DNA of 44,225 nucleotides from Psammoneis japonica (taxonomy: Eukaryota): positions 248,001-292,225 of the forward strand of contig QPGO01000102.1 of assembly GCA_008632985.1 (NCBI GenBank), given 5' to 3'. Below the pieces are notes generated by a model that was not told the DNA's origin, made no database searches, and saw only the letters and a program-made list of their open reading frames with translations. Positions 4,114-25,914 of the stretch are shown here, piece by piece (the stretch's first letter is position 1; the number at the start of each line of letters is the position of its first letter). A program made the translations under genes and the position numbers.

Positions 4114-4290
4114 CAGTTGCTTTTGATTGTGTCTCTCATCTTGTCCAAGGTGGAGTCTTCTCTTGGTTTCCGAAAGCTTCAGATCTGTGGACAAGGGCCA
4201 GAATGACTCCCTCCTTGCCAATCCAGGATTGTCGCCAGCAAGTCCCCAGCTTGTGTGACGAAGTGTCGGCAAGTTGCAACAATTGAAGAC
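4114..4290. repeat. Degenerate dispersed repeat, copy A (partner at 17838-18012)
   Basis: CAGTTGCTTTTGA...TCTTGTCCAAGGTG...GTCTTCT...GATCTG collinear with 17838 onward. Confidence 0.6.
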
Positions 4291-6423
4291 CCATCTCAGA
4301 CAAGTGGAGCACATCAAGACAGCTTCAAGACTCACCAACTGGAGCGCAGCAGCGTGAAATCAAAGTTCTCCAAATCTTTTTCATCTCAAGTGATGGCAAA
4401 GAGGCTGTCAGATGCAAAACACAAACAGCACATGTGCTGCATCAATGGTGATGGGATCTAAAAAGGGAGCTGTTTTGGCATGGGAAAAGGCTGGCAGAGC
4501 AAAGGTCAACATGATGAGCTCAAAGCATGGGCGCCACATGGAAGGTGTCAGAGCAAAGGTTGACAGGATGCGCTCAAAATGCAAGCACTGAATGGAAGGT
4601 GGCAAGGCTGGCAGATCAAGTGGAGAGAGTGGTTTGAAGCACAAGAGCAACTCGCCTGTTGCTGAAAAAAGTGAAAAGAGCAAGAAATGTTGCTCCCAGC
4701 TGGGAGGTCTGCAAAGGAGAAATGTGCTTGTTGTTGTGGTGCTTGGCCCGGTTGTGCATTTTTTTTTGTTGTGCGCATGCATCGCACATCATTGAGCTCT
4801 GTCGTGTGTCGGCAACGGCGCTTTTTGTTTTGCACACGCATGGTCTGGGGCAGTGGAAGGACGCAGAAAACCAAGGCAAGGGAAGCGAGTGAGCCAAAAA
4901 CAAGGAAGGATGGCAGGATTTGGATTGCATCACAAAAAACAGCAGTGGCATCATCATCTCATCAAGCGATGTGCACTGCCTGTCTTCCTTCAGCATTGCG
5001 GTTGCCTGCCCAGCGCACTTGTGCATGTTCTCACCATCAATCTGATTTGTTGAGCCAGTGCTGCAGTGGCCAAGCTGCTGCATGAGCAAGACTCTGAAAT
5101 GACACACCAAGAAGTGACAACCCAATTTTCTCATGGCGCCCATTTTCTTTTTTGTGGATTGTTGTCTAAATGATGATTGCACCACATCTGGCGGGCATTG
5201 AACGCGCGCTCTTTTGAGCTTTTGTGGTCTCTCCAGCAGCACCCCATTTTTTGCCCACATTGTTCTCTTGTGCTCTTTGTTCTTTTCTTCAGATTGAGAC
5301 CATGATGGGAGAAATCATGCATCTTGCCTTGTTGGTGGACAAGGCAAAATGACTGCTGTTGAGTCTCAGCATGCTTTTCACTGTGTGATGGCATTTGGGC
5401 TCTTTGGCTTTGAAGGTCAGTGTTTCACGCAGGCACTGCAGCAACACACAATGGACCATGGCATCATGGCAACAATTCCTTTTGGTGGCTTGACACAGAG
5501 AGACATCCTTTTCTGCCAGAGTTGCCAGTCTGTGGTCATTGGTGAGAACGAGCGGCATTGAAGAGAACAATCTCTCCATCTGCCAGCTGCTGGTGCATTG
5601 TAGATTGCTGTGTTTGTGTTGTTGGCAAGCAGCAGCACACCATTTCACTCTCAGCATCATTTCATCATTTTAGTCACCATTTGTCTCACACTCAGTCCAC
5701 TCTGTTTTTGCTGACAATGTCAGATTGGATGAAATCAACATGCAGAGGGGAGACGTCATGCATCATGCACTGTGCCTCATGGACTGCAAAATGGTTGCCA
5801 TGTCATCATCAGTGACAAGAAAAGCCGCGCTGCACAATGATGTCAACGAGCGGCACTGCTGATCAGAGTGGTGTCTCAATTTCTCATTTCTGCATCTTGC
5901 TGTGCCATCGGATCTGCAGATTGTCATGCACATGGATGAGTCTCAACACAATTCATCACTGTGTTCTTGCCTCACTCTTGGACTCTTCTTCATTCTGAAC
6001 TCATCATGCCAGCATTTGGCAGAATCATCATGATGTGATGAACGCTTTGCAAGTCACAAGTGATGATGTTTCAGAGTTTGCTGTTTGTGCAGCATGGCAT
6101 TGATTTGTTTCCTGTTCAGCATTTTGCAGCAGAAGGACCGGCATGCATCACAAATGAAACACTCAAAAAATGGCATGGCAGCAACACTGCAAATCTTTCT
6201 GTCATGGGCATCTCATGCTGTTTGCTTTGTTTGCATTTTGCACACATGCCGTTGCTTGCGTGCTGGTGTGCTTTGAGACGTGCTGCTTGCTTTGATTGAC
6301 ACATCATTGCTCTTCTTTGAATGTGGTGAGCATGCAACATGTGATGAATCACAAGGATGACAAACAAATTTGTGCATCTGGCCAGCACTCTTTCTTCTCT
6401 TTTTTGCAGACAACCAATGATTC

Positions 6424-6508
6424 TGGTCCAAGTCTGTCCTCCAAGAATGCCACTCTGACTGAAGCGCTGTGTGTGTTGATGGTGGTCCAAGTCTGTCCTC
6501 CAAGAATG
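6424..6508. repeat. 26-bp direct repeat, period 59
   Basis: TGGTCCAAGTCTGTCCTCCAAGAATG at 6424 and 6483. Confidence 0.85.
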
Positions 6509-7229
6509 GTGCTCTGACCAAAGCATTGTGCATGTTGAAGATTTTGACAATCTTTCCCATCAAGGCAGTGTCTGATTTTTGTTTCTTGTGGCACTCGGAT
6601 CTGCGGTGAAAGGAGGGGAATGACTTGTGCCTTGTCAATCTGGGGCTGTCATCATTGAGTCAATGCTTTGTGGTGACAAGTGTTGGCAAGCTGCAGGAAC
6701 TTGAGAAGACCTCAAGACTTGCTGCCTCAAGACACACCTCTGCATGCCCTGCTTCTGTGTGGCAAAGTTTCAGAGATTTGGCACTGTCCGGCTCACACAT
6801 GGGGGGCATTGCTGATTTTGGCATTTGCTTCATTTGCTTGAGCTTTGCATCTCATTTGGCTGCCTCAATGCAGACAACAATGCAGCACCATGTTGTGGGC
6901 AATGAAAGACTGGCCACATGAAGAGAGGTGCTGATGCACACTCTCAAGCTCCCAAAACATTCATTGAGAAAAAGCGCGCAGAGCGCAACTGCGCAACAAG
7001 CAATTGTTCCCAACACACCAACGTGCTTTGTGCAACAAATCATTTTGACCATTGAGATGTTTTGCTGGCCTGCATTCATCAGGAAAAAGGAAGTTGACAA
7101 ACAACCATGTGTGGCTGGTGGCTGGAAAGTGCACAACAAGAGCTTTCAACTGATGCGCACACCTGAAAATCAACCATTTGAGCTGTTTTGAGCTCCATCA
7201 GCACCTTTTCATGTGGCCAGTCTCAAGTC

Positions 7230-7520
7230 AACTTCGTTGATGCTTTTTACAAAGCTGAGGGATTGAGCGAGTTTCAACATTTTTTTTCATTGAGCTGTTG
7301 CTTGCAAGACCACCTTGGGAAAAACCTGGGACCCAAAAAATGACTTGGTTGTTGATGTTGGAATTTGGCCTGCTGCAACAGAGAGAGAATCTTCCTGTGC
7401 CATTTGAGTGCATGATGCACAAGGAATCTGTTGCACAACTGCACTGTGATTTGGCACAATCAAGCTGCAGCTCAGTCATCAACTCATCTTTCTAAGATCA
7501 TCCATCACGCAAATGAGAAC
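7230..7520 (+). pseudogene. Degenerate fragment of the 687 gene (matches ~1580-1860)
   Basis: GGATTGAGCGAGTTTCA...GATGTTGGAATT...CACAAGGAATCTGTTGC shared; translation WLLMLEFGL..QRENLP.PFECMMHKESVAQL. Confidence 0.9.
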
Positions 7521-7549
7521 CTGTTGATTCATTTGTTTTTCCCATCTGC

Positions 7550-7815
7550 CAATTGGGGGCTTTTCCAGAGTCCACTGCCTGCTCCTGCTCTCAAGATGCA
7601 CTCTGTTGTGATTGCCAACAACCCTGCAATTTTGCCATGTTGCTGCCAAGTCCAACAGCAAGACTGAATGAGCTGCCAGCCCATCTGACTCCATTGTTGC
7701 TGCAAACAGATTGTCGTTGGGTGCAGCTCTAAAAAATGCAACCATGAATGGCGGCAATGCCAGCAGTTGTGAGAACAATTGACCACACATTCAAGAAGAC
7801 AATGAGTCTGACAGC
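7550..7815 (+). pseudogene. Degenerate fragment of the 687 gene (matches ~905-1200, with an internal deletion)
   Basis: CAGAGTCCACTgCCtGCTCC and CCAGCCCATCTGACTCCATTGTTGCTgCA; the source copy has TA at these g positions. Confidence 0.9.
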
Positions 7816-7854
7816 AATGTCCACAGCAATGAGAGCCAATGCCAGACCATTTTC

Positions 7855-9745
7855 AAGATGCCACACAACAAAAAGGACTTCTACAAGCAAATGATCATGC
7901 CAACATTCAGCTCCAACATGGCCCAAGAAACTGCCAAGCTGCGCTGCAAAGCCATGGCAGCATGCGCTGAAAAGTGCCATGTCATTGAGCATCCACCAGA
8001 CGGGTGCTGTTTGGACCAAATGTCCACCTGAGCTGTTGCCAAGAGTCCTGGCATTTACGGGGTGCTCAAAAGGATGCACTGGAAAAGGTTGGAGCAAGCA
8101 GCATCATGCACAACTGCTGCAACCTTTCAAAAGATGTCAAGCAATGCAGCCAATTTTGTGTCATGGCCAATCTTGATTGCACCAACACTGACTTTGATGC
8201 AGAGATGCAAGTTGTTCACAGAGACTTTCTTGATGCTCTCTGTGAAGCTGAGGGATTGAGTGATTTTTTTTCATCAAGCTGTTGCAAGACCACCACGGGG
8301 AAAACCTGGGGCCCAAAAAATGCTTTGGTTGTTGATGCTGGAGCTTGGCGTGCAACAGTGAGAGAATTTTCCTGCACCATTTGAGTGCATGATGCACACA
8401 AGGAAACCATTGCACAACTCCTCCATTGCAATTTGGTGGAATCAAACTGCAGCTTGGTCACCAATCATCTTTCCAAGATTGTCAGTTGTGCAAATGAGAA
8501 CCTGTCACTTCCACTCATTTTTGCCATCTCCAGCTAGAAGACCAGAGACATGGTGGCTCACCCAGCAATGTCTTGAGACCCCTTTGCATCATTTTGCATG
8601 AGCATCTGCAATGTGATGCACTCCCTCATCCAGCAGTCCACAGCGCTGCAACTGCCAAAGAGAAGTGCTTGACGGCAGCATGCATGGACCAACAAAAGGC
8701 CACCAATCAGCCAGTCTTGTGCTGCCACATGCAATGCCTGACTGAACCACCCTTTTGGAGCTGCACTCTTGGACTTGAGCAACTTGACATTTGATGACAA
8801 CCCCAATTTCCATCGGGGTGCAGCTCAGGTTCTTGAGAACCATGGCTTTCGACAGGTCAAATGTGTGCCCTGTTTGGCAAGATTCATCTGTTTTTGGATG
8901 CAAGCAAGCTTTGCACAATTTTCTTGCACAAACCACCGTGCATTGCAAGCAACAGTCAGGCATGCATTCCCATGATGTTTTGTGTTCACTGTGTGTTGTC
9001 ACTGTCAGCACTCCACAATGTTGCTTGAGTGTTGGCTGAGCCTTGCTGCACACCAGCTCTGGCCACTCCATCATTTGCCATGCTCAGCAAGGCAAGGAAG
9101 AGCAAACGCATCTTGAGATGCACAAGCTTGCCAAAAAGGGTTGGGCAGCACAGCTGTTGACAAAAAGACTTTCAGCTGCAGACTCAAAGAGATCATCAGC
9201 CAATCCATTCCTGGCCCAGCTTTGGTGCTGCACCTCATTTCTCTTCATGACCAACATGGGAAAAAACAGGGGCAACGACACTCTGGACCTGGCGTGGGTG
9301 AAGCCAGAGAAGAGGTTGCAGAGAATGATTCAAAGGGAAGAATCTTGTGGATGCTTGCCAACCCACTGCAAGTGGCGAGTCTGAGTGCACATTTTGGGCA
9401 AAGGAGACAAGCAACAATGCTTTGCAGAACCAACGGCCCGGAGCACTCATTTTGTCTGATTGCTGGGGCCATCTTTTTCCTGGCAACAGCTGCAATGAAG
9501 TTGCTGGCATGGTGCATGAAGGCATCAAAGAGTGTTCCAAGGCTTGCCAAACATTCAAAGGAAACTTCAATTCCATCACTTGTGATTGGCACCCTCATTT
9601 GCACATCAAGAAGGTGAGGTGCAACATGGGCAAGAGACAGGAGGTCCAAGTCACTGTGGGTGGAATGCACGGGGGAATCATGAGCTGATGTGTGTGTTGT
9701 GTCAATTTGCACTCAGTGATGGCCAAAGCTCAGTGTGACTTCTTT
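7855..9745 (+). pseudogene. Long degenerate copy of the 687 gene (matches ~1215-3437, lacking ~2390-2740)
   Basis: Collinear from GATGCCACACAAC..AAAAGGACTT to GCCAAAGCT...GACTTCTTT, with many frameshifts and TA->TG/CA and CG->TG/CA changes. Confidence 0.9.
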
Positions 9746-9819
9746 GCACCATGGAGTGCCTGTGCAAGCAGCAGAAGGAAGCCACCAGAATGGCAAGGCT
9801 TGTTGGAGCTGGCGCATGT

Positions 9820-10093
9820 TGACAGGATTTGAACAGGATTTGGGTGCGCGCAAAATGTCGCGCGCTGTTCAGTTTGCCGCGCACAGTTTTGTGTGCTTCA
9901 GTTCCGCGCGTTCGCACGATGTAGTTTGCTTTCGAGCCACAAGGCTCACAAGAACAACAACAGTGGCCCGATTGTGCTGACTTGCACATCTTTCGGCTCC
10001 TGCAACGGTCTCTGAGCGGAGACTCATCTGCCATTTAGACAGCAGCAAGGAGTTGTTGTTTGAATTCTTGCCATTTGCCTTCAATTTCTGTCA
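9820..10093 (+). repeat. 5' LTR
   Basis: Direct repeat of 16618-16893; TG...CA termini. Confidence 0.97.
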
Positions 10094-10899
10094 GATTGAC
10101 AGTCTTGCTCATTGTCAACCCATTGAGCAACCGCCATCGTCATCGTTGATTTGCCGACGATGCCACCTCAATTCTGCGTGGACCTCCGTGTGTGTTCTAC
10201 GTGCATCGGCAAGTCTGCGCACATTCAACACCAGGCATCGGCAGGAATTTAACGTCGCCATCAAGTCTCCTCACCGCTGGACATCTGGATTGATTGCACT
10301 GCCTTTTGTCGCTGAAGACATGCGCTCAACGGTCATGTCCAAGTCTGTCCTTGATCCTCATCCCTTGATGCACCCATTCAACGGTTGACGGTCAAGAACC
10401 CTGCATTTTCAAGGATCTTCATCGCTGAAGACACACATGTGCACATGTCTTCACGGCCAAGAACTTGCACCCACTCTTTGGACTCTACAAGCACACCGAG
10501 TCTGTTGTGCCTGATCCACCCCGGACCACTGGTGCTCTGCAGTTCTGCTGGGTCCACGAGGACGACTGTGAGAGCAAGCAGCAGTGATTGCAGCCTGCGT
10601 TGGGGCGAGGGTGTTTTCCCGCGTTTGTTCGTTCGTCCACAGCGCCCAACGCCTGCGTCAACTGGCCAGCCTGATGGGAAATCCAACCGATGTAAAATGA
10701 GAATGGTTCCGGGGTCTTGTCCACCTCCAGTCAGCTTGCCTGCAGGGGTTTGCAACCCGCTGCTCCACTCGCAAGCAACCCAAAGCGCAGCTGGCTGTGG
10801 GCTCGGACGTGCCGGCACAACTCTCAGGGCCGGATGGGAAGTTTGGCACTTGACAACGAACGGGATGACACAGCCCGGCAACTTCTGATTTTAAGACAG

Positions 10900-10960
10900 T
10901 TCAAGATTTCAAGTCAAGTCTGTTTCAAGTCAAGTCTGTTCTCACCCAAGTTTCAAGTCT
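10900..10960 (+). repeat. TTTCAAGTCAAGTC short repeats in the retrotransposon leader
   Basis: TTCAAG/TCAAGTC units repeated several times just upstream of gag. Confidence 0.7.
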
Positions 10961-11011
10961 GCCTTCGCGTCCCAACCAGAATCGCTTGTTCTGACACCGC
11001 TTTTGTCTGCC

Positions 11012-14000
11012 ATGGTTCTCACTTGTCAGCAACAAACTGATGGTTTCGAGCACCTTGTTGGAACTGTGCTTGCCCAAGGTGCTGGAAGCCCTCTTCGTTT
11101 GGCTTTGACCCATGACGGCACGGACTCGTGTCAAGAACTGTTCACGTTCATGCCGTCCCAAATCGACTCGCTTGAGTGCGACAACGGCACTGATGTGATC
11201 CCTTTGCCCCATGGTATAAGAACATGTTGGCAGCTCAGTTGGTCTGCACATTGTCAAAGCACACAAAGGTCTTGATGTTGCCAATGACTCCTCGTTGTTC
11301 ACGCACAAGGAGTTCCTTGCCTGCCGCCTCAGCCCCGACTGCATGTCGTCTGTGTCCGTCGGCAGCTCGCCTCTCGCACCTCCGCACGTCACCAACCCGA
11401 CCAAGGCACATGACCCAGTGCAAGACTTCAAGCGAGGTGTCAAGTGTGACCCCACTGCTTTCACGGCTCTCAAATCGACAAGCAGTGGCACACTTGGCAC
11501 ACCTCACTTGTGGCACAAGCCCGTGCCCAAGACGTCGAGTGCACTCTAGACTCGTCGTACAAACCGACCAGCCCCGAAGACAAACTGCTCTTTGCTGAAC
11601 AGCAAAAGCACATGTTCGCCATCTTCGAACACATCCTTCTCACCGATGAGGGCAAGGCTCTCATTCGCGAAAATGTGGGGTCTTCTGATGCCCAGACCGT
11701 CTGCCGTGCCTTGTCCGAGCATGCGCTCGCCTCCACCCGCGCATCTGTCGAGTCCTCCACCTTGCTCGCGCACCTTGCCACAGCACGTCTTGGTGATGGT
11801 GCTTGGAAAGGTCCGACCCACGGGTTCATCCTTCATTGCAGGATCAGCTGCGCAAGTGTGAGGCACTCATCCCGGCCAGTGACCACTTCTCTGAAGGACA
11901 GAAGCGTGTCATGCTCGAGAATGCCGCACATCCTGTCGAGGAACTCCGTGCCATCAAGAACCAAGCTGATCAGCATCACACGCAGAGTGGCAAGAGCCTC
12001 ATGTGATCAACATTGTGGCTTGCTCCTCTCCGCGGCGGCCCAATGCGACAGTGCGTTTCAACCCAAGACGACACCTCGAGCTCCCCGATGCGCCATGTGC
12101 ACACACGACGTCCACTCCGAGGAACCATCCGATGATGTGTTCCATGACATCGACAGCGACATTGACGTCCTTCAGGCTGACGCTGCCTGCACTGGCGGTC
12201 CCAGCCCCACCGGTGACCAATGGAAACGTCTCCCCCCCGACCACCAACGGATTTGGGATTCGTTGCCCCATTCCTCCAAGGCGATCATCCTTGAGCATTC
12301 TCGGCCGCCTCCCCGCAACCCGCGAGCCAGCAACTGCCATGAGTCCATTGTGGCCAACCTTCACGACCAACGACTTGGGAGTGACGGTGATGTCAACTTG
12401 TCCAACATGACTCCTGCTGACTCTGGTGACCCCGCTCCAAATGTGGGTGCCACTTCAGATGATCCCATCCTGGCGCACCTCACCAAGTGCAAGCCACTGC
12501 CACCCGGTGATCTGCACCGCCTGTTGTCTCCCAACCAAGCCTCCAATGCTGGTCGACCGGGCCCATCCGCCACTCCCTCTGCCTCGCCTGCTCCTGCAGA
12601 TGACACGGAACTTAACGGCCGCACTTGCCACCACGTCAATGACCACAATGTCGTTTGCTCTGCCTCCGCTCATGGCTCCACACGCACTGGTGCTCAGTCA
12701 ATCGTGGAGCCAACGGCGGCATTGCTGGCGATGACGTTCGCGTCATTGCATGCACCTCTTGCCAAGTCGACGTTCAGGGAATTGACAACCTTCAATTGGT
12801 GGACATCCCCATTGTCACCGCTGGTGCCGTCATTGAGACACAGCATGGTCCCGTCATCACCATCCTCCATCAGCACGCATGCACGGGAAAGGGCAAGACC
12901 ATTCATTCCTGTGGCCAGCTCGAATGGTGCAAACATGATGTCAACGATTGCTCCATCAAGGTGCCCAACGGCTTGCAATGTATCGCCACCCCTGATGGCC
13001 ATGTCATCCCAATTGACATCAAGGGCGGCCTGCCTTGTGTTGCCATGCGACCCCACACTGACGCCAAATGGGACACCCTGCCCCATGTCATCCTCACGGT
13101 GATGACACATGGGACCCTTCCGTCCTTGATCACTCCATCACTGATGACGACCAGTGGTGCAACGCGATCTCTGTCCTGCAGGATGATCCCACTGCCAACC
13201 CATTTGATGAATGCGGCAACTGCCGTCACCGTGTCGTTGTCAACAAGGCCATCATGTCCGCCTCCTTCTCTGCCGATCACGTCCGCCCTCAATGACCACC
13301 TCATTCCCAATGATGACATGTTCTGCGAGTGTCATCTGCACGCGATTGACCCCAAGGATGACAACGTTCCAACCCCGGAGTGCACTGTGCAGCCCAAGGA
13401 CCCCCCCTGCGAGTCTCTTCAGCCTTGCTTTGGTTTCCAACCCACCGATGCGGTTCATCGTACTTTCGACTGCACCATGCAGCATGCCCGCATGCCCGCC
13501 GGTGCTCACCTTAAGAAGGCCCACAAATCACCCAACCCTGCCCTTAATGTCCACCGCTGCAACGAGCCCATCGCCACTGACACCGTCCATGCCAACACCC
13601 CGGCCGTCAACTCTGGTTGCACTGGCACCCAATTGTTTGTTGGCACCGAGTCCACCGTCACTGACGTCTGCGGCACCAAAATGGACAAAGAGTTTGTCAA
13701 CACACTCGAGGATCAGATCCGTGAGCGTGGTGCTCCATCCAAACTCATCAGCAACCGTGCTCAAGTTGAGATCAGCAACAAGGTGCTCGGGATCCTACGA
13801 GCCCTCTTTGTCTCCAGCTGGCAAAGTGAGCCTCACCAGCAACACCAAAACTTTGCCGAACGTCGACACCAGACCGTGAAGTGCATGGCGAACACTGTCA
13901 TGGACCGTTTTGGTTCGCCTGCCCACACATGGCTGCTGGCGCTCATGTGCGTGTGCTTCATGCTCAACCATGCAGCGTCCCCACGTCTCCACTGGCACAC

Positions 14001-16610
14001 GCCCCTCGAGACTCTCACTGGCTCCACCCCGGACATCAGCCCATTGCTTCACTTTCACTGGTGGGAACCCGTGTGCTTCCACCTCGATGACTCCGATTGG
14101 CCGTCCAAATCCCGTGAGTTGCGTGGACGCTTTGTTGCCATTGCTGAGCATGTCGGCCACCAGATGACCTTCAAGATTCTCTCTGACGACACTCAGAAGA
14201 CCCTCTGCTGGTCCAACGTACGACCCGCCACCACCGATCCTGCCGTTCGAAACCTGCACCTTGATCCTCTTGACGGGGAGCCACCTGAACCCATCATCAA
14301 ATCTTGCCATGACGACAACCCCGTCGACTCTCCTGATGGGGTGATCAGGACACCCAAGATGCCAGTTTTCGATCCGCAAGACATCATCGGATGCACCTTC
14401 CTCATGCAGCCACAAGAGGACAGACAACGCCACAGAGCTCGCATTGTCAAGGCCATCAAAGAGCACGAATGGAAAGTGAACGGCAACCCCGAGCTCACTG
14501 AGTTCATCTGCTCTGTCAACAACGATGAACACAAGGAAGTCCTGGCCTGCAACAACATCATGAATCACACTGAGCAAGAAGACAAAGACACTGCTGTTTG
14601 GAAATTTTGACGCATTGTGTCACACAAAGGACCTCTGAAGCCTCATGACCCAACCTGGAAAGGCTCAAGCTGCAACACCATGCTTGAATGGGAAAGTGGG
14701 GAGATCACGTCTGAGCCTCTTGCCATCATGCCAAGGACAACCCTGTCACCTGCGCCATCTGTGCACGAGAGAACGGACTTCTTGACACTGATGGCTGGAA
14801 GCGGTTCCGCACCATCGCGAGGCACCAGAAGAAGCCATTCCGCATGGCCAACCAAGCCAAGCTTCGCTCCTTCTGCACTGCACCTTGCTGCAAGTGCAGG
14901 TGCGAAGTTCCCCGGAACTGCAAAAATGCCATGTCACCAGACGAATGCAACGGCAATGGCAAATGGGGAGACGCAACTAATCTGGAGATGGACCAACTCA
15001 ATGAATACGAAGTCTTTCATGACTGCGGGCCCTCCGAGTCTTCCACTCCTCCTGCGGGACACAAGGAGATCCGAGTGCACCTGGTGTGCGACGTGAAACA
15101 TGGCGGCCGCCACAAGGCATGACTCGCAGCCGATGGGCACCTCACGGACGTGCCCATCGACAGTGTCTGCTCCGGAGCAGTCTCCCTCCATGGCCTTCGG
15201 CTGATGATTTTCCTGGCCGAACTCAACGAGTTGGAGACATGGGCCACCGACATTGGCAATGCCCACCTTGAAGCCACCACCAAGGAGAAGCTGCACATCA
15301 CAGCTGGACCCGATTTTGGCAAACTCAAAGGCCACATTCTTGTCATCCACAAGGCCCTGCATGGGCTGCGCAGCTCCGGTCTCCGCTGGCATGAGCGCTT
15401 CGCCGACTGCCTGCGAGCTGAAGGTTTCTTCCCCTGCCGCGCCGAACCCGACATTTGGATGCGCAGGAATGGCGACCACTGCGAATGCATTGCCGTTTGT
15501 GTGGATGACCTCGCCATTGCCATGAAGGATCCTCAATCTTTCGTCGACACTCTCACGGAAAAGTGCAAGTTCAAGCTCAAGGGTGCGGGACCGATTGAGT
15601 TCCACCCAGGCTGCGACTTTTCCTGGGATCCTGATGGCACCTTGTGCCTGTCTCCGCGCAAGTGCATCAAACGTGTGGTCGACAGCTGCACATGACTGTT
15701 TGGGGAGAAACCTGCCACCAACACCCTGTCACCTCTGGAGAAGGGTGGCCACCCCGAACTGGACACTTCCGAACTGCTGGGGCCCGATGGCATTCAACAG
15801 TTCCAGTCTCTTGTTGGTTCACTCCAATGGGCAGTGTCCCTTGGTCAAATTGACGTTGCCACGGCCGTCATGTCACTCTCTGGCTTCCGAGCTGCGCCCC
15901 GTCAAGGCCACTTGGATCGTGCCAAACGCGTCTGTGGGTGCCTCTCCAAGATGCGACACGGCGCTCTCCGCGTTCACATGGAAGAGCCCGACCATTCGGA
16001 TCTCCCTGCTCCGGCCTGTGAATGGATGCATTCCGTGTGCGGCGAGGCAGAAGAGATGATCCCGAAGGACGCTCCACCGCCCCTTGGCAAGTTCGTCACT
16101 GCCACCCACTGCGTCGATGCAAACTTGTGCCATTGCATGCTCACCGGATGCTCTGTCATGGGAATGCTCCACTTCCTCAACAAATTGCCGGCTGATTGGT
16201 TCTCTAAGAAGCAAGCCACCATGGAGACTGCGACCTGCGGGTCTGAATTTGTTGCCACAAGGACTTGTGTCGAGCAGATTGTCGACCTGCGCATCACCCT
16301 GCACTGCCTCGGCGTCCCGATCCGTGGCATCAGTTGCATGTTCGGTGACAACAAGTCGGTTGTAGACAGTGCCACCATCCCACACTCCAAGTTACACAAG
16401 CGACACACCACACTGTCGTTCCACCGTGTGTGTGAGGCAATTGCCTCTGGTTGCCTTGAGCTCCACTTCATCGAAGGATCCCGCAACCCTGCTGACATTC
16501 TCAGCAAGCATTGGGGTTGCTCCCAAGTCTGGGACCTTCTCCGCCCCCTCATGTTCTGGAACTTCATTCCATCCAAAGTCGAATCTGTTTCTGTGACTCC
16601 TCAAGCAAAC
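11012..16610 (+). pseudogene. gag-pol (gag, protease, integrase, RT, RNase H) with frameshifts and stops
   Basis: Starts MVLT at ATG 11012. Protease-like VNRGANGGIAG; integrase IATDT..LISNRAQ..QNFAER; RT ATDIGNA(H)L..KAL(H)GL..(C)VDD at 15498-15509; RNase H (C)VDAN..AT(C)GSEF..FGDN..NPADILSK. In-frame TGA stops at 14608, 15120 and 15693. 3' end approximate. Confidence 0.95.
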
Positions 16611-16617
16611 TGGGGAG

Positions 16618-16893
16618 TGACAGGATTTGAGCAGGATTTGGGTGCGCGCAAAATGTCGCACGCTGTTCAGTTTACTGTGCACAGTTTTGTGTGCTTTAGT
16701 TCCACGCGTTCGCGCGTGATGCAGTTTGCTTTCGAGCCACAAGGCTCACAAGAACAATGACAGCAGCCCGATCACACCGACTTGCACGTCTTTCGGCTCC
16801 TGCAATGGTCTCTGAGCGGAGACTCATCTGCCATTTAGACAGCAGCAAGGAGTTGTTGTTTGAATTCTTGCCATTTGCCTTCAATTTCTGTCA
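16618..16893 (+). repeat. 3' LTR
   Basis: Direct repeat of 9820-10093, preceded by a polypurine tract. Confidence 0.97.
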
Positions 16894-17837
16894 CATGTTG
16901 TGGTGCACGTGCAGCAGCAGAAACAGAGACAAGAAGCCTTGTGGGCTTCTAAATTCTGCAATGATTTTTTTCATTCATTCTTCTTCATTGTCATGCCATG
17001 CACAGCCAGCATTTGGGTGTGCTCTTTGCTCAGCAGAAAGTGTGTGTTTCTGATCACAGCTCAGTTTCAACTTGTCATTGTCTCCTTTTGGGTGGCTGTG
17101 CTTTTGCAAAAAATGATGCACAAGCCGCGCAGCACATGGCAGCGGCAGAAGGATGCAAAATCTAAAAGGAAAAGCCCTTTGGAAACCAAGGGAAGACAGG
17201 GGAAATGCCAAGGGAGGAGGCAGGTTGGCAGGTCAGCAGAAAAAACACCACAAGTGTCATTTTTGGTGCATCACCTGCTGCACCCTTCTCAAGCCTTTTG
17301 GTTGCCCACCGCCCACCCAGAACATTGTTTGTGTTGATTGCGAGATCTGCCAGAGCTGAAATGGCATTGTCAGCACTGTGGTCAAGAGAAAAGAGAGCCC
17401 CACTCTGCATGGCAGTTCTTGTGTGCAGCATCCATTTCTTTCTTGTCGATTGCCATCAAAAAGATGGAATCACATTGCACAAGTCTTGAGTGCATGAATG
17501 ACTTGTTTGTTCACTTCTGCATGCTTGGCTTGTTTGAACTTTGTTGTTGCTCCATTCCTTGTTGCTTTTGCTCTTTGTTCTTTTTTCTGATTGAAGTGGA
17601 GGGGAGACCTTCACACATGTTGCTCCCCATTGACTGACATTGACTGACATGGCAAAATGGCGTTGAGCCTCCAGTGCTGCACATCACAACACACAACTTT
17701 TCTCAGAGCAGCAAGGAAACTTTGAACACTGTGCCATCATGCCTGATTGCCCACACAAGGCAAGACACACTTTTGGGATTGTGTCTGTTGGCATGCATGG
17801 TGCACACATTTCTCTTGTTTCACTTGTGTCACCTCCT

Positions 17838-18012
17838 CAGTTGCTTTTGACTCTGTCTTGTCCAAGGTGATGTCTTCTTTTTTTTTCTGCCAGCCTTTGG
17901 ATCTGCAGAGAACAATGGGAACAACTTCCAGCTTGTCAGCCCAGGGTCATCATCATCAGGTCCACACTTTGTTGGTGAATGATGAGGAGGCACCAACAAG
18001 TTTCACAAGCTG
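17838..18012. repeat. Degenerate dispersed repeat, copy B (partner at 4114-4290)
   Basis: CAGTTGCTTTTGA..TCTTGTCCAAGGTGATGTCTTCT collinear with 4114 onward. Confidence 0.6.
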
Positions 18013-19318
18013 ATTGTTTCTTGTTGTGCTCTGATCAGCAAAGGAGGTCCGGGGCAACTTGCACCTGACAAATTTTGGGTTGTTGTCTTCCGGCCCAGAT
18101 TTTGTGAGGATGAATTGTCAGCTGCTGGCTTGTTGCAGTGGCTGAAGATGCTTGCTGTCATTGGATGGTGAGCAAAGTGGGATGAAGTGAGCTGGCTGGG
18201 GGCGCAGCATCTGAGTGGTGTCACGATGTGAGGCCAGCTTGGCTTTTTTTGAGCAGGAGACAAAGTGGCTCACTTTGGAGATGCTCTCAAAGAGCCCACA
18301 GAGCAGGGCGGGAGCCTGTGGGCTCCTTGCAGCACACCTGCCCACAATTTTGTTGCCACCGGTGCTTGCAAGAGACAAACAGCAGCGAGAGAGAGCCAAG
18401 CTGGCTCACCTTGGCAGCGCTGTCCTGCAAACCTGTGTTTTGTGGCAGCACACTTGATTTTGAGGAACTGTTGAATCTGCAGAATTCTTGCTTCTCACAT
18501 TTTACTCTGCTTGCTCTGTTTTTGCTGGTTTGGACTGCTTTCCTTGTGTGTGTGTCGCACATTTTTTGTGGCACTTTTTTGGCGCCGGCGCAGTTGCTCC
18601 CCTCTCTTTGTGTGGCGATGTTTTTGCTCTCCAGAGCTGCGGTCAGGTGCTGCACGCACAAGTTGTTGATGTCAAGCAGATGTTCACCTCCCAAACAACT
18701 TTTCCAAAGGCTTGTTCCTGCATCAGCATCACAAAACAACGTGTGCTGTTTTCACACTCGTCCTCTTCTCTGAGGCTCCCCATGGTGGGCACCCTGACTG
18801 GAGCTGCCACTTCTCAGAGTTTTCAACAGAGATCCTTGTGATGGTGGCTCTGCACCACAGGCCAAAAATGACTGTCACCCAACTTTCGATTGAGAGGAAA
18901 CAGGCATGGAATTGTGAACATCTTCGAAGATCGAGCGGAGACAGAGGCGGAGAGCGCCGCCACATCGGCACGCACACAGGCAGCCAGATTGAGATCAGCC
19001 AGCCAGGCTGGCCAGGGACACACGGCATTTTGTCGCATTTGGCGACATTTTCTTAAATGAGTTGATGATTTGTCGCGAAAAGACGCGAATTGCGACAAAA
19101 TGTCCGGGTTGGTGATAAACGGGACAGAAACATTGTTCAACCAAGTGACAAAATGATCAATGTCATCATTCACAACCAACCTGAACGTTTGGCGATGTCG
19201 TTTCAACAAGTGGGGCAATCAACAGAATTTGGCGATCGATGTCATCGACGAAAATTCATCCGACAAAATTTGTCGCACACGACAAAATTTGTCGCATCCG
19301 ACAAATTTTGTCGGCGTG

Positions 19319-19418
19319 CGACACGACACGACACGACACGACAAGACACGACACGACAAGACACGACAAGACACGACAAGACACGACAAGACACGACAAG
19401 ACACGACACGACACGACG
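19319..19418. repeat. Pentamer tandem array (ACACG/ACAAG)n
   Basis: Read directly; about 20 units. Confidence 0.95.
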
Positions 19419-19701
19419 ACTCACGAACGAAACACCCATGCCCCCCGCACACGCCAACCGACCGCTAACATCTCCGTTGACACTGCCGGCATGTCTCTTT
19501 TGCACGATGATGCAAAGCGACGATCATGCCGCTCTCGGCGGTCTCCATGCTCTCGTCAATGCAGGGACAACATCGTACGCTTCTACACAGTGCAACGGAA
19601 TGTACCGGCATGTGTTGCTGCACTGTACCTTTCATCACTGCGACTGAGCACTTCTGAATGTTGGGGAGCGTTGCGTCATCGGTGTGTCGCAAACGTCCGT
19701 C

Positions 19702-19797
19702 TGTCGGCGTTTGTCGGCTCTTGTCGGCGTTTGTCGTACGTTGTCGGGGTTTGTCGGGGTTTGTCGGGGCTTGTCGGGGTTTGTCGGGGTTTGTCGG
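19702..19797. repeat. Decamer tandem array (TTGTCGGGGT-like)n
   Basis: Read directly; roughly mirrors the CGACA-rich array in the left arm. Confidence 0.9.
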
Positions 19798-20419
19798 ATA
19801 CGACAAAATTTGTCGTACGTCCGACAAAATTTGTCGTATCCGACAAAATTTGTCGTACGTACGACAAAATCGCCAAAACATTAATTAACAAGTACAGTCT
19901 TCGCCGAAAGTTAAATTCATCATGTGGCACTGTAGTTGATATAACGTCTGTGTTTAGGACACGCCATCGCCAATTAAATGATGATTTTGTCTTATTTATC
20001 GCCAACGTTTGAAATTTGTCTCAAAGGGCGTTTTTCACGACAAATCGTCCAATTCATTTATGGGAATGTCGCAATTGGCGACAAAATGCCGTGTGTCCCA
20101 GGCACGCAGAGTGGTTCGGATGAAGGTCTGCCTGTCGTCAGAATTCCTACACAAAAATACGTAGCAGCAGTACTATGAAATTACGTCACGGATCTTTGAG
20201 GATTGTTCACACTTCAGACGCGCGACGCGACGAAGGAAGGCAATGGTACCAATGGTGCGGAACCGCGTTTTTTCGTTGCAAAGTTATCAGCATCCACAGG
20301 ATAACACTAGTAGGTACAGTGACAGAACACCCCATCTTTATATAGAGTACTGTAAAGGAGTTGTAATCACTTCCGGCAAAGTCAAACAAGCAAGCTTCAG
20401 CTAGCATCGACCTTACCTC

Positions 20420-23400
20420 ATGTCGGCACCAACGTCGCGTCCGGTTCATCCGTGTGCCTTGTCTGTCTTTGATGGAAGCATCGGAGCAGAATACTCGACA
20501 TGGGCGCACCTTATCCCTGGTAACTTGCCAAACTTAGTGACTGCTCAGAGTTCTACGCTTAGGATTTACCGAGTGCATGAAGAGACAGGAACATGCATTC
20601 TGGTAGAGTCCTTTAGCAATCTAGCCGGGAGTGTTTGCTTTCTCGATACTCTGTCGTCTCAGGACGAGCCCGATGCCCTCTTGATTGGGTTTTCGGGTCA
20701 TCCTCGATTAGCTATTGTGACTCTTTCCAAGGAAAAGGCATCGTATCCACTCTTGCTCGCAACTAGCTTGCTGGATCTGTCGCCTGCTCTTGCAGATGCG
20801 AGTTTGGGATCAGTAACGCCGCTAGAGCAAGACATGGTTGTTGGTATTGACCACCACAAGAGTAAAAAGTCGGTATCGGTATGCGTCATTTTGGGTGGTG
20901 GCGTTGCAGTTGCAACCCTGACTTTGCAGCATTCCAAGGACGGTTGGTATGCTAATGATCCTTATATGCTGCCCCTGGCAACGCTTTGCGACAAGACTTT
21001 AAATTCGGAAGAATCCGTCGGGTCGACAAAGCAAACCAAAAAGACACCAGCAGGAGCGACTGGCAACGTGCCATCTATTGCTCATGGCTTTGGGGATATT
21101 TTACACTCATGCTTTCTCGAGGGGTACTTGGAACCCACGCTTTGTTTGTTGCACTCCAACAAATCCGGACGTGCGTGTTCCGCAAGGTTGGGAAGGGCAT
21201 CGGCTGATACGACCGGGACAAGGAATTTCATGGTGGTGACCACCATTAGTGTGTCTGTGCTACATCAAAGGAGTGCGGTCTTGTGGTCGGTCGCCGTACC
21301 TGCGGATGCATTGCTATTGCAACCTTACAAGTGCGGAGTCATGGTGCAGAGTGTAAACTCTATCATGCATATTGCAAATTCGGGGAGGGTAGAAAATCTA
21401 CTGGGAGTGAATGGGTGGGTACGATCGACTTTACCTCCTGGTCTGGAGGTCCAAACGAACCCATGGCCACTGCCGAAACTTGCGATACAGTTGGATGGTG
21501 CGCACATTTCTATTTTGGTTGACGATTCAAAAGACGCCACCAGCGCCATTGTAGCCTTACGTGGAGGGCAATTGTACACGTTAAACTGGGATGGAAGGCA
21601 TTGTGGATTGGCGCCCATGCCATGGACGCTGGGGACGATCGGACAAGTCGCCAACCTCCGTGCGTGGCCCCTTGGCGACTTGAAAGAAATCATGCCAAAG
21701 AAAATCGTCAAGGCCGACAAGCAGAGTTCAAAACTGGGAATACTCTTCGTGGGAAGTCGAATGGGAGATGCATCACTCCTAGCGTATGGGCTTGAGAACA
21801 ATGTGGTATTAGCAGACTTCAATGATAACAAACGCGAGGGAGGAACAAAGCGCAAACGGGACGAAGATAATGGCGAAGTTGTCATCAAGAAGGAGCCTAC
21901 TCCCAAGAGCGCAGCAGAAGAATATGAAGCTATGCTTCAGTTAGAGGAAGATGCCCTTTATGCACCTACTGACACGGACCACCTCCAAGAACCGGATATT
22001 GTCCCTCCGAGCGACGATGATGAAGAGTATGTTTCGGAAACCCTGGCCCACGAAGCAAACCGTCCAAAGCTAAAATCAATGACGGCTGTTCGTACCTTGA
22101 CAACCTTGGACTCCATCACTGCTCTTGGACCGGTGGGCGAGGGATGCGTAGGTCCTTTGACAGGAGCCGCAAGCAAATCGCCTTCACAAGTTGTCTCTTC
22201 TGCGAGTGCCGGTTCCCTTTCTTGCAATACTCATGTTTTGCCCTGCGGGCATGGATCAAGTGGTGGTTTGGCTCTGGTTACCACGCCTGGACGTGACGAC
22301 CGCTCAATCATGGCCGAGGCCGACTGTCTCAATATGACTTGCCTGTTTGGTTTACCAAAACACGGATTAGTACTCCTGGGAAAGTCGAAAGGGATGCATG
22401 TTTTAAAGCTAAAGAAGCAAACGGAACTCGAGGATGTGGATTTGATTAGTTGGTGCGGGGGTATCGATGACCCTGATTCGACAACTTTGTGGAATCCCCT
22501 GCACGTGTTGTTGCGAACTTGTATAATGAGTGCATCGGAGCTGAGCGACGAATTTGACGAAGCGTACATGGTACTGCTGGTCGAGGACAGCCAAAGCGAT
22601 GAATCGTTTCCAAGGATCCAACAAACTCCATTGTTGTTTTGAAACAAAGTGAAGAAAAGTTGCAAGTGGCATTTGTGTATGAAATTGGACAAGGTCAGGG
22701 ATCCTTACTTTCAGTGACTCCGATGATTCGCCATGACGATGACTGGAGTCCGACGCTTTACTTTGGGTGTACCTGGTCTTCTGGTAATGGAACGGTTACT
22801 ACGATTAGACCGCCAAACGCCAACGACGAAGAATTTACAGGAGCTGATTCAATCTTTGATGGCGAAGTCGTTGAAAAGATGGAAATTGAGGAAGAAGAGG
22901 AGAACTATGATCAATATTACCAAAGCAATAGAATTGTTGCCATGGATGTATTCGTTTCGGCAAAAGGGCTTTTTCTTCCTCCGTCAAGTAAGGATTCGAA
23001 GCTCACTGTAAACCAGGCAGAGGCGAAAAAAGCGAGCAAGCAGTCTACGAAACAAGAGAAGATCGAAGCGACTACTTCGGTTAGCAACATTATCCCATCT
23101 GACGACCAACTGGCAATATTTGACGAGGAAGATCTGGAGTTGTACGCCCCTGAGGAAAGAGAGACGACCGCTTCTTCGAGTGTCACGACGAAGCCTTTCG
23201 CAACGAAGTCGATTGATGCCAAGAACAAGGAACTCTACATTGCCGTATGTCGTCAGTCGGGGCTTTTACAGATTCATCGCCTACCTGTGGTTGGCGGCAC
23301 AATGACACAGTCAGAATTGGTATGGGAATCACCGGGATGTGGCCACGGAATGCCGGCACTTTTTCCCAACATTGCCGGGAATGCCTCGCCCAGAACTCCA

Positions 23401-25914
23401 AGAATGCACACGGTTCATACTGCTGAATTTCGATTCTTTGTGTGCGGCCCATCTCTGGATATTCCCAAAAAGGTGCAGCCTACCGGCTTATCAGATTTTC
23501 GGACCTTGTGCATCGCCATTGAAACCACCGCAGGAGACGTGTACCTGTATAAGATGGAGCAAAGCCCCGCTAATGGGACGACCTTCGTCCGATCACCACT
23601 TGGTGTTGTTGGCAGACCGAGTCTGGAGCAATCAAGACACCGGGCCAAACTGAAACGAAAAGGCATTTTGCCAAGCTCCGCGAGTAATGAAGAATCCGAT
23701 CCCAACACACTACGCTACAATAGTCTGCATCCGTTTCGGGGGATATCGGGCCAGGACGGTTTGTTTGCAGCGTGTGCTCGACCGTTGTGGTTTGTTTCTG
23801 AGCGAGGGTCGCCTACCTTTCTTTGCCATCGGTCTCGGCATGTTGCACCCGCTGGTGGAAAGTTTCGACCGGTTGCCGGATTCTGCTCCGGACTGTTTGT
23901 AAGTATTTTGTCATCCGTACTTGTTCTCATTGCGCTCTCTTTGCACTCACGTGATTTTATCAATTGTAGAAGCAGGGAAAATCTGCTGTCGGTGGTGGTG
24001 GGTTCCTCACACTACACGAACGTGTTGGTCGTGTCGGTAGCCAGCGCTTGACTTGTTTCCGCGGGTAAGTTCAGTCTGATGCTTAGACCTACTGCTTGTG
24101 TCTGCGTCTCATAAAGATTACCTTGTCTATGTTTTTTTTTTCAGATTACCAAACGTATTTGCTTCCTACGGATTCTTTCCTGGATCCGGACTATGTGTCG
24201 AGAAAGTGCCGCTTGGTGTAACTGTGCGCCAGATCCAATTCATCGACGACTCGCACGTTTCTTCCCGCGAACACCCGCTTTATGCAGCGCTGATCTCACG
24301 TGAGTTGGAGCAGGATCAGACAAACTTGAATGACGACGGCCTTACGACAGAAGAAAGGGAGAGGCAACAAAAAGAAAAGGAAGACGCAAAAATCAAAAGA
24401 CAAGTCGAAGCAGACCTGGGCGGTTTCGACATGGAGCAGGAGTGGGTAGAGGAAATTGAGCGGGAGAATTGCTTTGATGTGGACAAAGCGATTGGTGGCG
24501 CACCGCCAATCCGCAAGAGCGCGTATGCTCTTTGGATTGTGGATGCATCCAACAACTGGAACGTTGTGGATTCATATGAACTCGATGAATACGAACACGG
24601 ACTAACTATGAGTGTAATGTCGCTAACCGACGTAAGTATCTGTAATCACTTTGTTTCGCTGCGTTTGTGATCGAACCAGCGGCTGATCCTCTTGGTATTG
24701 CTGAACAGGTTGCTGACGAAACGGGCAAAGTGGCGACTATCGTTGAGACGACTGAAACTGATAATTTGTTCATCACTGTTGGAACTGGGGTCGTGGATCA
24801 AGATGGAGAAGACGTTGCTTCCAAGGGCCGAGTTCTTTTATTTGAAGTCAAGCGAGAGAAATCCGCGGTAACTGGGGCTGCTGCGGACTTGTCCCTCGTA
24901 TACGAAAAGAACATCATGCACGGTCCAGTGACATCTCTAAGCTGCCTGTCGTGCGAAGGTCGCCAACGCATAATCATTGGAGCCGGATCTGACGTTAATG
25001 TGGAGCAATGGGGCAACGGCAAGCTCACGCAGGTTGGTTTCTTCCGAGCACAAATGCACATCAAGGACATTTTGTTGTTTAAGACGTTCTTTATCTTGAG
25101 CGATGCGTGAGTACAAGCGCTCGAATTGCCTTTCTTTCTCCTCGGTTTTGTTGCGACGTAGTTCCTTACGACCATTCTTTACTGTATGTTTTCCCCAATC
25201 AGATATGATTCGTTGTATTTCTTGGTGTGGCGTGAATCTGACAAGAGCTTAACGCTGCTCGCAAAGGACTACGAGCCGGTTCCGGTGTATGCGTCGGGTA
25301 TCATGAGTCGCGGAGGCTCCGTTTCGTTTGTCTGTCACGACGATAGACAAAATCTTCAGTTCTTTCAGTATGCTCCTGGTGATGCCGCAGCTCGTGGTGG
25401 CAACAAGCTGGTTTGTCGAGCCGATTATCACTTGGGCTCACAAACCGTATCCATGCAAAGCCACTTTTGCCGGTCCAGCCTTCTCATCAACTCGGCTACT
25501 ACGACCAGCACGCTAGAAGCACTAAAGCAGCAAGACACGTTCGTAGGGCGGACCGATGATGATCAGCGCATGGGTGTTAACTTTGGCACCTCTGATGGGG
25601 GATTGGTGGCGGTCGTGCCACTGAGTGAACCAGCATTTTGGCGTCTCACAGCGCTGCAGAGTGTCCTGACGAATGCGCTGGAAAGTCATTGCTCTCTTAG
25701 TCATCGAGCTTGGCGGTTGTATCGGAGGACTCCCCGACGAAGTGGATGCCGCAGCAATGACCGAAAAAAGGGAGTCATTGACGGAGATCTTGTGCTACAG
25801 TATGCTGATTTGGACCTGCCGGAACAAGAAGATGTGGCGAGTTCAATCGGGTCAACCGTAGAGTTGATTTTGGACAATCTCTTGGAAGTCCGGTGTGCCA
25901 GCATGGTAGTTTAA
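20420..25914 (+). CDS. CPSF1: Cleavage and polyadenylation specificity factor subunit 1 (CPSF160)
   Basis: N-terminal NLVTAQSSTLRIY, LFVGSRMGDASLL, GED...KGRVLLF, LTLLAKDY and C-terminal GVIDGDLVLQY motifs. Introns 23899-23969, 24065-24144, 24632-24708 and 25107-25202 keep frame; one 1-nt frameshift near 22608. Confidence 0.93.

Follow-up and report, generated by a model that had tools for sequence, protein, structure and literature searches.

The dinucleotide TpA has been almost completely lost from a block of repeats in a 44,225-nt window of the genome of the diatom Psammoneis japonica (contig QPGO01000102.1, forward strand); this window is the whole stretch of DNA analyzed here, and the block includes a complete but dead Ty1/copia-type long terminal repeat (LTR) retrotransposon. 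We interpret the block as silenced repeat DNA that was subjected, at the DNA level and after integration of the element, to hypermutation of TpA to TpG or CpA, and we assign a probability of roughly 70% to this interpretation. According to it, the copia element would have integrated into repeat-derived DNA of the diatom genome, and a process acting on DNA would then have turned nearly every TpA of the block into TpG or CpA (A to G on either strand), with the result that tyrosine codons, all of which start with TA, would have become codons for cysteine (TGY) or histidine (CAY).

The dinucleotide composition of the window, given as the ratio of observed counts to counts expected from base composition (o/e), delimits two TpA deserts and a partly depleted shoulder:

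Positions 1 to 2039, left shoulder of desert 1, partly depleted (TA o/e 0.42, CG o/e 0.94)
Positions 2040 to 19570, no strand, TpA desert 1, the putative hypermutated block (49 TA seen against 1032 expected, o/e 0.047)
Positions 39001 to 40250, no strand, TpA desert 2 (2 TA seen against 61 expected; CG o/e 0.30)

The o/e values of TG and CA are raised to about 1.4-1.7 in both deserts, and those of desert 1 amount to 1.68 for TG, 1.66 for CA and 0.56 for CG; the corresponding values of the gene-bearing host DNA are 0.60 for TA, 0.97-1.0 for CG and 1.07-1.24 for TG and CA. The dinucleotides AA and AT are undepleted in the block (o/e 1.10 and 1.04). A comparison of the gag-pol region of the element with the loci of 30 relatives yielded 2.9 versus 50.3 TA per kb, with gains of TG and CA of similar size, and the sum of TA, TG, CA and CG remained close to that of the relatives (253 versus 244 per kb). 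The GC content of the element is 0.56, compared with a median near 0.48 in the loci of the relatives. A desert-like composition was found in none of 79 metagenome loci of relatives (TA o/e 0.44-0.96), a set which was derived from the best 80 of 580 hits and leans to intact copies, since one of the two scan patterns contained tyrosine.

The copia element occupies the central part of desert 1 and was identified by its LTR pair with TG..CA ends, a 5-bp target-site duplication and a gag-pol region matching full-length relatives:

Positions 9815 to 9819, plus strand, left target-site duplication CATGT
Positions 9820 to 16893, plus strand, complete but dead Ty1/copia-type LTR retrotransposon
Positions 9820 to 10093, plus strand, 5' LTR of 274 bp
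Positions 11012 to 12694, plus strand, gag-pol segment 1 with gag and the N-terminal part (tblastn match to residues 1-580 of relative P0004, 28% identity)
Positions 12697 to 14721, plus strand, gag-pol segment 2 with the protease/integrase part (P0004 residues 582-1237, 54% identity), one frameshift away from segment 1
Positions 14730 to 16559, plus strand, gag-pol segment 3 with reverse transcriptase and RNase H (P0004 residues 1241-1848, 63% identity), following the second frameshift
Positions 15156 to 15683, plus strand, reverse transcriptase domain RVT_2 (Pfam PF07727, E = 7.6e-16)
Positions 15498 to 15500, plus strand, TGT codon that changes YVDD to CVDD
Positions 16618 to 16893, plus strand, 3' LTR of 276 bp
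Positions 16894 to 16898, plus strand, right target-site duplication CATGT

The o/e value of TA is 0.075 over the whole element. Besides the two frameshifts, the gag-pol region contains seven in-frame stops, all of them TGA (four in segment 1, one in segment 2 and two in segment 3). Since TpA is erased, the stops TAA and TAG vanish and TGA is left as the only stop codon, and dead TA-free DNA gives rise to very long open reading frames (ORFs) because TAA and TAG are missing. ORFs of 550 and 655 amino acids are present in the dead element region from 11450 to 14610. The RVT_2 domain is also carried by the intact relatives, and a Pfam match to the rve integrase domain was detected neither in the window nor in these relatives. 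A D,D(35)E spacing is nevertheless readable upstream of the reverse transcriptase in the consensus of the relatives; the corresponding stretches of the window are ..ATDTV.. at 13570-13596, ..LISNRAQ.. at 13744-13770, in which the catalytic D now reads N, and ..NFAER.. at 13849-13872. The element is inserted in older sequence without a recognizable domain, and a Pfam scan of 79 ORFs from the remainder of both deserts returned only three sub-threshold chance hits.

The loss of TpA is most apparent at the protein level in the tyrosine codons of gag-pol, where the initial annotation had read twelve peptides as copia motifs recoded from tyrosine to cysteine or histidine. All twelve peptides are present, eleven of them sharing one frame within positions 15078 to 16526 and HQHACTGKG being located at 12868 to 12894, and the TGT codon at 15498 lies within ...IAVCVDD as described. 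The consensus of 30 intact relatives has tyrosine at each of the quoted sites, reading YEYIAVYVDD, NAYLEA, KVYI, KALYGL, VYSGVVSL, HLVYDVKH, THYVDANLYH, ATYGSEF, LRYLGVP, SYMFGDN, HWGYxQ and HQYAYxGKG. Tyrosine is thus the ancestral residue at these positions, which are not occupied by cysteine or histidine in the relatives, and the reverse transcriptase active-site motif YVDD, invariant among the relatives, has indeed been altered to CVDD. Exactly two in-frame tyrosine codons survive, at 11558 in segment 1 and at 15006 in segment 3, and segment 2 contains none.

The substitutions were counted in an alignment to relatives. A search with the 655-amino-acid ORF at 12643-14610 yielded 512 relatives, and 86 of the 120 listed among them were full-length polyproteins of at least 1700 amino acids. 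These 86 sequences were aligned to the window by tblastn, and a column was regarded as conserved when at least 80% of at least 40 relatives agreed. Among the resulting 654 conserved columns, tyrosine is retained in 1 of 33 and other residues in 546 of 621 (Fisher p = 2.5e-26), and no other conserved residue was replaced nearly as often as tyrosine; the respective numbers are 2 of 58 and 825 of 1027 at a conservation threshold of 50%, and 1 of 20 and 320 of 346 at a threshold of 95%. The replaced tyrosine codons of the conserved columns now read TGC (19), TGT (2), CAC (3), CAT (4) and TTC (4). The column test and the tyrosine residues of the relatives together support the proposed direction of change from TAY to TGY and from TAY to CAY, with TA as the ancestral state. 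The next most affected residue is arginine, with 33 of 48 conserved columns retained and codons changed from CGN to TGN or CAN. When the 107 replaced conserved columns were classified, 41 fitted a single step from TA to TG or CA, 32 a step from CG to TG or CA, 5 other transitions, 17 transversions and 12 multi-step changes; these classes assume the most favourable ancestral codon, and the counts are accordingly upper bounds. The shift in composition of the translated element, with 0.11% tyrosine (2 of 1846 residues), 4.98% cysteine and 5.69% histidine as opposed to 3.85%, 0.91% and 3.48% in the relatives, is far beyond chance. The initial view was incomplete in three respects. The loss of tyrosine is not specific to copia gag-pol, as TpA is erased across blocks of 17.5 kb and 1.25 kb; some of the excess of cysteine and histidine stems from arginine codons by CpG decay (CGY to TGY or CAY); and the 3:1 ratio of cysteine to histidine goes back to a preference of the converted strand, described below.

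The time of the change was deduced from sequences that were once identical or similar, namely the two LTRs of the element and two copies of a repeat of the block, the latter being listed here together with a further repeat at the right edge of desert 1:

Positions 1032 to 3357, plus strand, repeat copy A, 79% identical to copy B, with the left edge of desert 1 (about 2040) inside
Positions 7636 to 9662, plus strand, repeat copy B, wholly within desert 1
Positions 19011 to 20103, no strand, 1.1-kb terminal inverted repeat (TIR) element with 54-nt inverted repeats at 19011-19064 and 20050-20103 (83% complementary) and the right edge of desert 1 inside

The LTR pair shows 20 mismatches at 274 aligned positions, 19 of which are located at TA, CG, TG or CA dinucleotides and one elsewhere. 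The site classes comprise eight sites with CG versus TG or CA, three with TA versus TG or CA, four discordant sites with TG versus CA, eleven shared CG and one shared TA, and seven TA-derived sites differ between the LTRs. A discordant site requires that the same ancestral TA or CG decayed in each LTR by a separate event. CpG decay alone, with a loss of about 0.27 per LTR, predicts about 0.7 discordant sites (P = 0.007 for four or more), and about ten ancestral TA sites with a loss of about 0.6-0.7 per LTR fit all three TA-related counts. Taken as an indirect measure, the LTR pair puts the rate of change at TA sites two to three orders of magnitude above that at ordinary sites and at several times that of CpG. 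Similarly, where repeat A keeps TA, repeat B reads TG (10 sites) or CA (9 sites), and 51 sites are discordant for TG and CA. Since the LTRs, which are identical at integration, differ almost only at TA- or CG-derived dinucleotides, most of the change took place after integration and at the DNA level.

These data bear directly on the possibility that the transcript of the element was edited from A to inosine by an ADAR- or ADAT-like enzyme and that the edited copy was then reverse transcribed and integrated. RNA derived from repeats is a target of ADAR-type editing, which prefers a 5' U, as stated in the Discussion of a preprint on Bigelowiella natans (bioRxiv 10.64898/2026.01.13.699255), and the TA loss deduced from the LTRs is lower than that of the internal sequence, so that part of it could predate integration. 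An edited copy would nevertheless have received identical LTRs, which now differ at the seven TA-derived sites, and sequence that is not retrotranscribed is equally free of TA, including the tandem array, the inner half of the TIR element and the low-copy flanks. Moreover, TG and CA rose symmetrically along the element, whereas a single product would be expected if one RNA strand had been edited, and AA and CA are undepleted. We therefore regard an origin by RNA editing as very improbable.

The distribution of TA within the repeats argues for targeting by position. The left edge of desert 1 lies within repeat A, the left third of which keeps TA (o/e 0.34-0.5), whereas the homologous part of repeat B has lost it. 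The right edge is sharp within about 250 bp and cuts through the TIR element, with 2 TA in the inner arm and 18 TA in the outer arm; the middle of the arms is too diverged for per-site counts. The TIR element contains many CGACAAAATTTGTCG palindromes, a (CGACA)n run at 19319-19417 and an array of the 10-bp unit CGTTTGTCGG at 19698-19797, and may be of the foldback or of the miniature inverted-repeat transposable element type. Desert 2 covers about five degenerate tandem units of 210-240 bp according to self-BLAST, the alignment of which contained too few informative columns, and is located immediately upstream of a PPP5-like gene whose ORF ends at 39006. Both deserts consist of repeats, and the adjacent genes are normal in composition. 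Because the block edges cut through repeats, we infer that the process is directed by position rather than by element or homology, with a chromatin-like domain as the probable target; sequence of apparently low copy number is hit as hard as the multi-copy element.

Read data are in accordance with this view, with a limitation on copy numbers. Four public runs match the window sequence, all of them from one sample and one study with no RNA run listed, and one of them, here termed X1, was used for depth. The contigs of the sample pile up on the copia element, with a summed word depth of 44,000-112,000 and 12,865 pieces of at least 80% likeness from run X1, which indicates that the copia family is highly repeated in the sample, and a summed contig depth of 2,269-4,152 suggests that the TIR element is repeated as well. 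The flanking regions 7338-9338 and 17343-18676 show a depth of 62-73, like single-copy contigs, yet they are free of TA; summed depth is not a copy number, however, and these flanks may be old repeats.

The sharp edges also speak against the assumption that no dedicated process is required and that TA disappeared through gradual neutral decay, inefficient repair of untranscribed sequence, GC-biased gene conversion or selection against this dinucleotide. Most genomes contain less TpA than expected, including this host with its o/e of 0.60, and the CpG decay of the block demonstrates that it is old enough for context-dependent changes. On the other hand, the element is young, with one LTR mismatch outside CG- and TA-derived sites, and has lost more than 90% of its TA, and the transition on the right is completed within about 250 bp. 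Gene conversion should have increased GC at AA, AT and TT too, yet these dinucleotides are unchanged, and selection cannot favour the loss of catalytic tyrosines in an element with seven stops and two frameshifts. An explanation of this kind consequently appears improbable to us, if slightly less so than RNA editing.

A technical origin of the pattern, in which modified bases of heterochromatin were systematically miscalled and TA is really present, was considered as well. Base modifications do cause systematic miscalls on some long-read platforms, and the only matching run may be the source of the assembly. However, the desert is matched by X1 contigs of a word depth of 57-78, which deviate from it in 0-6 letters per 0.5-2.2 kb. 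At position 10234, moreover, further X1 copies have TA or CG in places occupied by TG or CA in the window. The differences between the window and the X1 copies are mostly transitions, with 278-318 places per transition type versus 32-52 per transversion type, and the 40 listed among the 1,528 differing places include CpG-type, TA-type and other changes. The frameshifts, the CGA to TGA stops and the transversions are typical of real decay, and copia fragments devoid of tyrosine are also present in ENA and JGI assemblies that are unrelated to this one. An artefact is thus the least probable of all explanations considered.

These fragments were detected with the mutated RNase H ORF as query. Among the best 150 of 12,065 representatives, five (P0279, P0274, P0371, P0331 and P0281) contain 0-0.5% tyrosine, 3-5% cysteine and 5-7% histidine. 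They represent copia fragments from ENA and JGI assemblies with cysteine or histidine at conserved tyrosine columns, and since their patterns are unlike that of the window, other copia lineages were apparently hit independently. A search of viral contigs with the same ORF revealed no relative.

The sequence context of the changed sites points to a preferred target. Of 27 sites with TAC on one strand only, 25 had been changed at the A of this strand (p = 6e-6), the full site set comprising 20 sites of repeats A and B and 28 codons changed from tyrosine to cysteine or histidine; for TAY in general, the TAY strand of the same set was converted in 25 of 30 cases. The threefold excess of cysteine over histidine among the converted tyrosine codons is explained by this preference of the converted strand for 5'-TAC, and no strand bias is seen over the full element despite the cysteine excess. 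The surviving TA are enriched in YTAR, in which neither strand reads TAY (23 of 51 versus 163 of 934 in host DNA; p = 9e-6). A purine or pyrimidine in front of the codons changed from tyrosine to histidine had no significant effect (4 of 11 versus 3 of 17).

CpG decay is found in the same block, with CG o/e values of 0.13-0.8, and is slower than the loss of TA (about 0.27 versus about 0.6-0.7 per LTR). It also spans less sequence, as the outer desert regions 2001-3000 and 19000-19570 are TA-free with normal CG, and it is most advanced in the older desert core at 4001-9000 and 17001-18750 (CG o/e 0.13-0.4). CpG decay and TA loss are thus partly uncoupled; in the proposed mechanism, ordinary decay of CpG to TpG or CpA would proceed more slowly alongside the conversion of TpA.

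With respect to the enzyme, the bias of the converted strand towards 5'-TAC is compatible with a TadA/ADAT-like adenine deaminase, which would act on silenced DNA, convert the A of 5'-TAC-3' by preference and leave inosine to be read as G. TadA and ADAT2-ADAT3 natively act on A34 following an invariant U33, and the bacterial tRNA-Arg loop reads U-A-C-G. These proteins are RNA enzymes, and this tRNA loop matches the 5'-TAC preference observed here. The preference corresponds both to the U33-A34-C35 loop edited by bacterial TadA and to the YAC context favoured by early adenine base editors, and presumably it speaks for adenine deamination rather than thymine oxidation. The same domain-wide process could also rest on thymine chemistry, with a TET/JBP-type oxidase producing 5-hydroxymethyluracil (5hmU) or 5-formyluracil at the T of 5'-(G)TA-3', which would mispair with G and lead to T to C changes. 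TpA is self-complementary, so that T to C and A to G are inseparable from sequence, and the bias of 25 of 27 for TAC is equally readable as a GTA bias for T. Base J and 5hmU reside in T-A contexts, both in the telomere repeats of kinetoplastids and in the DNA of dinoflagellates. Transitions from AT to GC are caused by 5-formyluracil, whereas 5hmU paired with A is only weakly mutagenic. The literature found for 5-hydroxymethyluracil and diatoms concerns dinoflagellates, judged by title, and the available passages of one review contain no mention of a TpA preference. Thymine oxidation is accordingly considered unlikely, but clearly ahead of the other rival explanations.

Several observations weigh against hypermutation of TpA at the DNA level or limit its support. 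The sole sample matching the window may be the source of the assembly, which leaves the sequence without independent confirmation, and no de novo mutation was observed, all changes being deduced from one assembled sequence. Four conserved tyrosine columns (11615, 14077, 15801 and 16200) read phenylalanine (TTC), which requires an A to T transversion or an older lineage-specific change and falls outside the TpA process. The LTR sample is small, each of its three sites with TA versus TG or CA is ambiguous in direction, and the LTRs imply a TA loss of roughly 60-70% as against about 94% in gag-pol, so that part of the loss could have preceded integration. TAC is not depleted among the surviving TA (27% of strand contexts versus 30% in host DNA), although a simple TAC preference predicts depletion. 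The fragments P0279 and P0274 have more histidine than cysteine at conserved tyrosine columns, opposite to the copy of the window, which may reflect a strand bias per copy or a context rule other than TAC. Finally, no deaminase gene is present within the window.

The closest known system is that of B. natans, for which mutation-accumulation lines were described in the preprint already mentioned (Mettrop et al., bioRxiv 10.64898/2026.01.13.699255). According to its text, 231 of 302 de novo nuclear mutations fell into two integrated viral regions, derived from a nucleocytoplasmic large DNA virus (NCLDV) and a virophage, and all but one of them were A to G or T to C changes, all of these on TpA and giving TpG or CpA. 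The rate was about 6e-7 per site per generation, some 1000-fold above background, and the process was active in only some lines; the large hypermutated region is single-copy. The text further reports 124 clusters depleted of TpA and enriched in CpA and TpG, with reverse transcriptase and DDE domains enriched in TpA-depleted coding sequences. The authors suggested an ADAT2-like DNA adenine deaminase, and in the work cited there natural ADAT activity on chromosomal DNA was claimed only for amphioxus and trypanosome ADAT2.

As far as this text allows a comparison, both systems share the restriction to TpA with TpG and CpA as products, blocks of foreign or mobile DNA on the kilobase scale, and depletion of TpA with a gain of CpA and TpG. 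The process of B. natans does not depend on copy number, and in the window the flanks of single-copy-like depth are TA-free and repeats are mutated only in part, with the reservation that depth is not a copy number. The host is here a diatom (stramenopile), in contrast to a chlorarachniophyte (rhizarian), and the target is an LTR retrotransposon with other repeats instead of an integrated giant virus. The depletion is near saturation, with an o/e of 0.05 compared with 0.45 for the NCLDV region of B. natans, and the 5'-TAC preference and the accompanying CpG decay are not mentioned in the main text of the preprint, whose figures and supplements may hold a sequence logo or further taxa. The mutations of B. 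natans were observed de novo, whereas the window contains a long-term footprint. The text of the preprint mentions neither diatoms nor a base preference 3' of the A.

Other systems resemble the present one only in part. Repeat-induced point mutation (RIP) of Neurospora and other ascomycetes likewise kills transposons in DNA by near-saturating, dinucleotide-specific transitions and can spread to neighbouring sequence. RIP changes C to T (CpA to TpA), by which TpA is gained and GC is lowered, whereas TpA is erased and GC is raised here; furthermore, RIP follows duplication and acts over the whole duplicated length, whereas repeat A and the TIR element were mutated over a part only. RIP was rejected on these features, TpA being lost instead of gained and TA persisting in the outer TIR arm as well as in the left third of repeat A. 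Hyper-editing by ADAR and the action of APOBEC3 in animals also produce deaminase-driven transition clusters in mobile elements, and ADAR favours a 5' U. The substrates of these enzymes are RNA or cDNA that has not yet integrated, and a single strand bears the marks, whereas in the window the LTRs became different after integration, TG and CA arose with equal frequency and non-retroelement sequence was hit; ADAR-type editing fixed by retrotransposition was thus discarded in view of the seven TA-derived LTR differences, the symmetry of TG and CA and the affected tandem array and TIR element. The CpG decay of silenced transposons by way of 5-methylcytosine is present in the block, where arginine codons were changed to TGN or CAN, but it cannot produce TG or CA from TA and is slower and narrower in span than the loss of TA. 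A search of the literature on TpA hypermutation, RIP-like processes and hypermutated elements in diatoms found no diatom report, with the B. natans preprint as the only relevant work, and no signature of this type is described in the available passages of Maumus et al. 2009 (PMC2806351) and Hoguin et al. 2023 (PMC9998398). As far as these searches reach, processes of this kind have been reported in a single recent preprint, on another lineage, and the occurrence in a diatom, the saturation, the positional edges and the TAC preference are new.

Outside the TpA-depleted regions, the window contains intron-poor eukaryotic genes:

Positions 20405 to 25914, CPSF_A/DDB1-like gene
Positions 33883 to 35172, minus strand, ribonucleotide reductase small chain
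Positions 37041 to 39006, minus strand, PPP5-type phosphatase
Further genes of the window, a DUF5880 protein and MYND-finger proteins

The core of the ribonucleotide reductase small chain is 87-91% identical to the best 120 database proteins, and all organism-named ones among these belong to diatoms (Nitzschia, Cylindrotheca, Pseudo-nitzschia, Synedra, Odontella and others), which points to a diatom host, probably of the pennate group, and not to Bigelowiella. An ORF at 26683-27849 has a weak PT-repeat match and contains tandem repeats of 36 and 54 bp at 27190-27678 within a locally GC-rich, C-skewed kilobase. Another ORF, at 672-2543 on the plus strand, is a stop-free frame of 623 amino acids that extends across the left edge of desert 1 and part of repeat A; it matched no Pfam family, a search for homologues of near-equal length found none, and it could represent either an orphan gene carried by the repeat or a frame without coding function.

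Elements of the kind described here affect common practice, since LTR divergence would be unusable for dating them and dead TA-free DNA yields long spurious ORFs; public protein sets already hold tyrosine-free 'proteins' called by gene callers. To the main text of the B. natans preprint the window adds near-saturation, timing based on LTRs, edges running through repeats, a 5'-TAC strand preference and a loss of TA that outruns CpG decay. A tentative extension of these data, which we put forward with reserve, is that diatoms carry a dedicated TadA/ADAT-derived DNA adenine deaminase with a preference for 5'-TAC that is directed to silenced chromatin and not to repeats as such, possibly in defence against mobile DNA, and that would be the same system as in Bigelowiella, an old 'reverse RIP' common to the stramenopiles, alveolates and rhizarians by which invading DNA would be stripped of TpA and hence of tyrosine codons and two of the three stop codons. 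A natural A to G editor of chromosomal DNA would, if confirmed, also be of interest to the field of base editing. If our interpretation is true, TpA-directed hypermutation extends from one chlorarachniophyte to a second, ecologically dominant lineage with genetic tools, in which the enzyme and its targeting would become testable.

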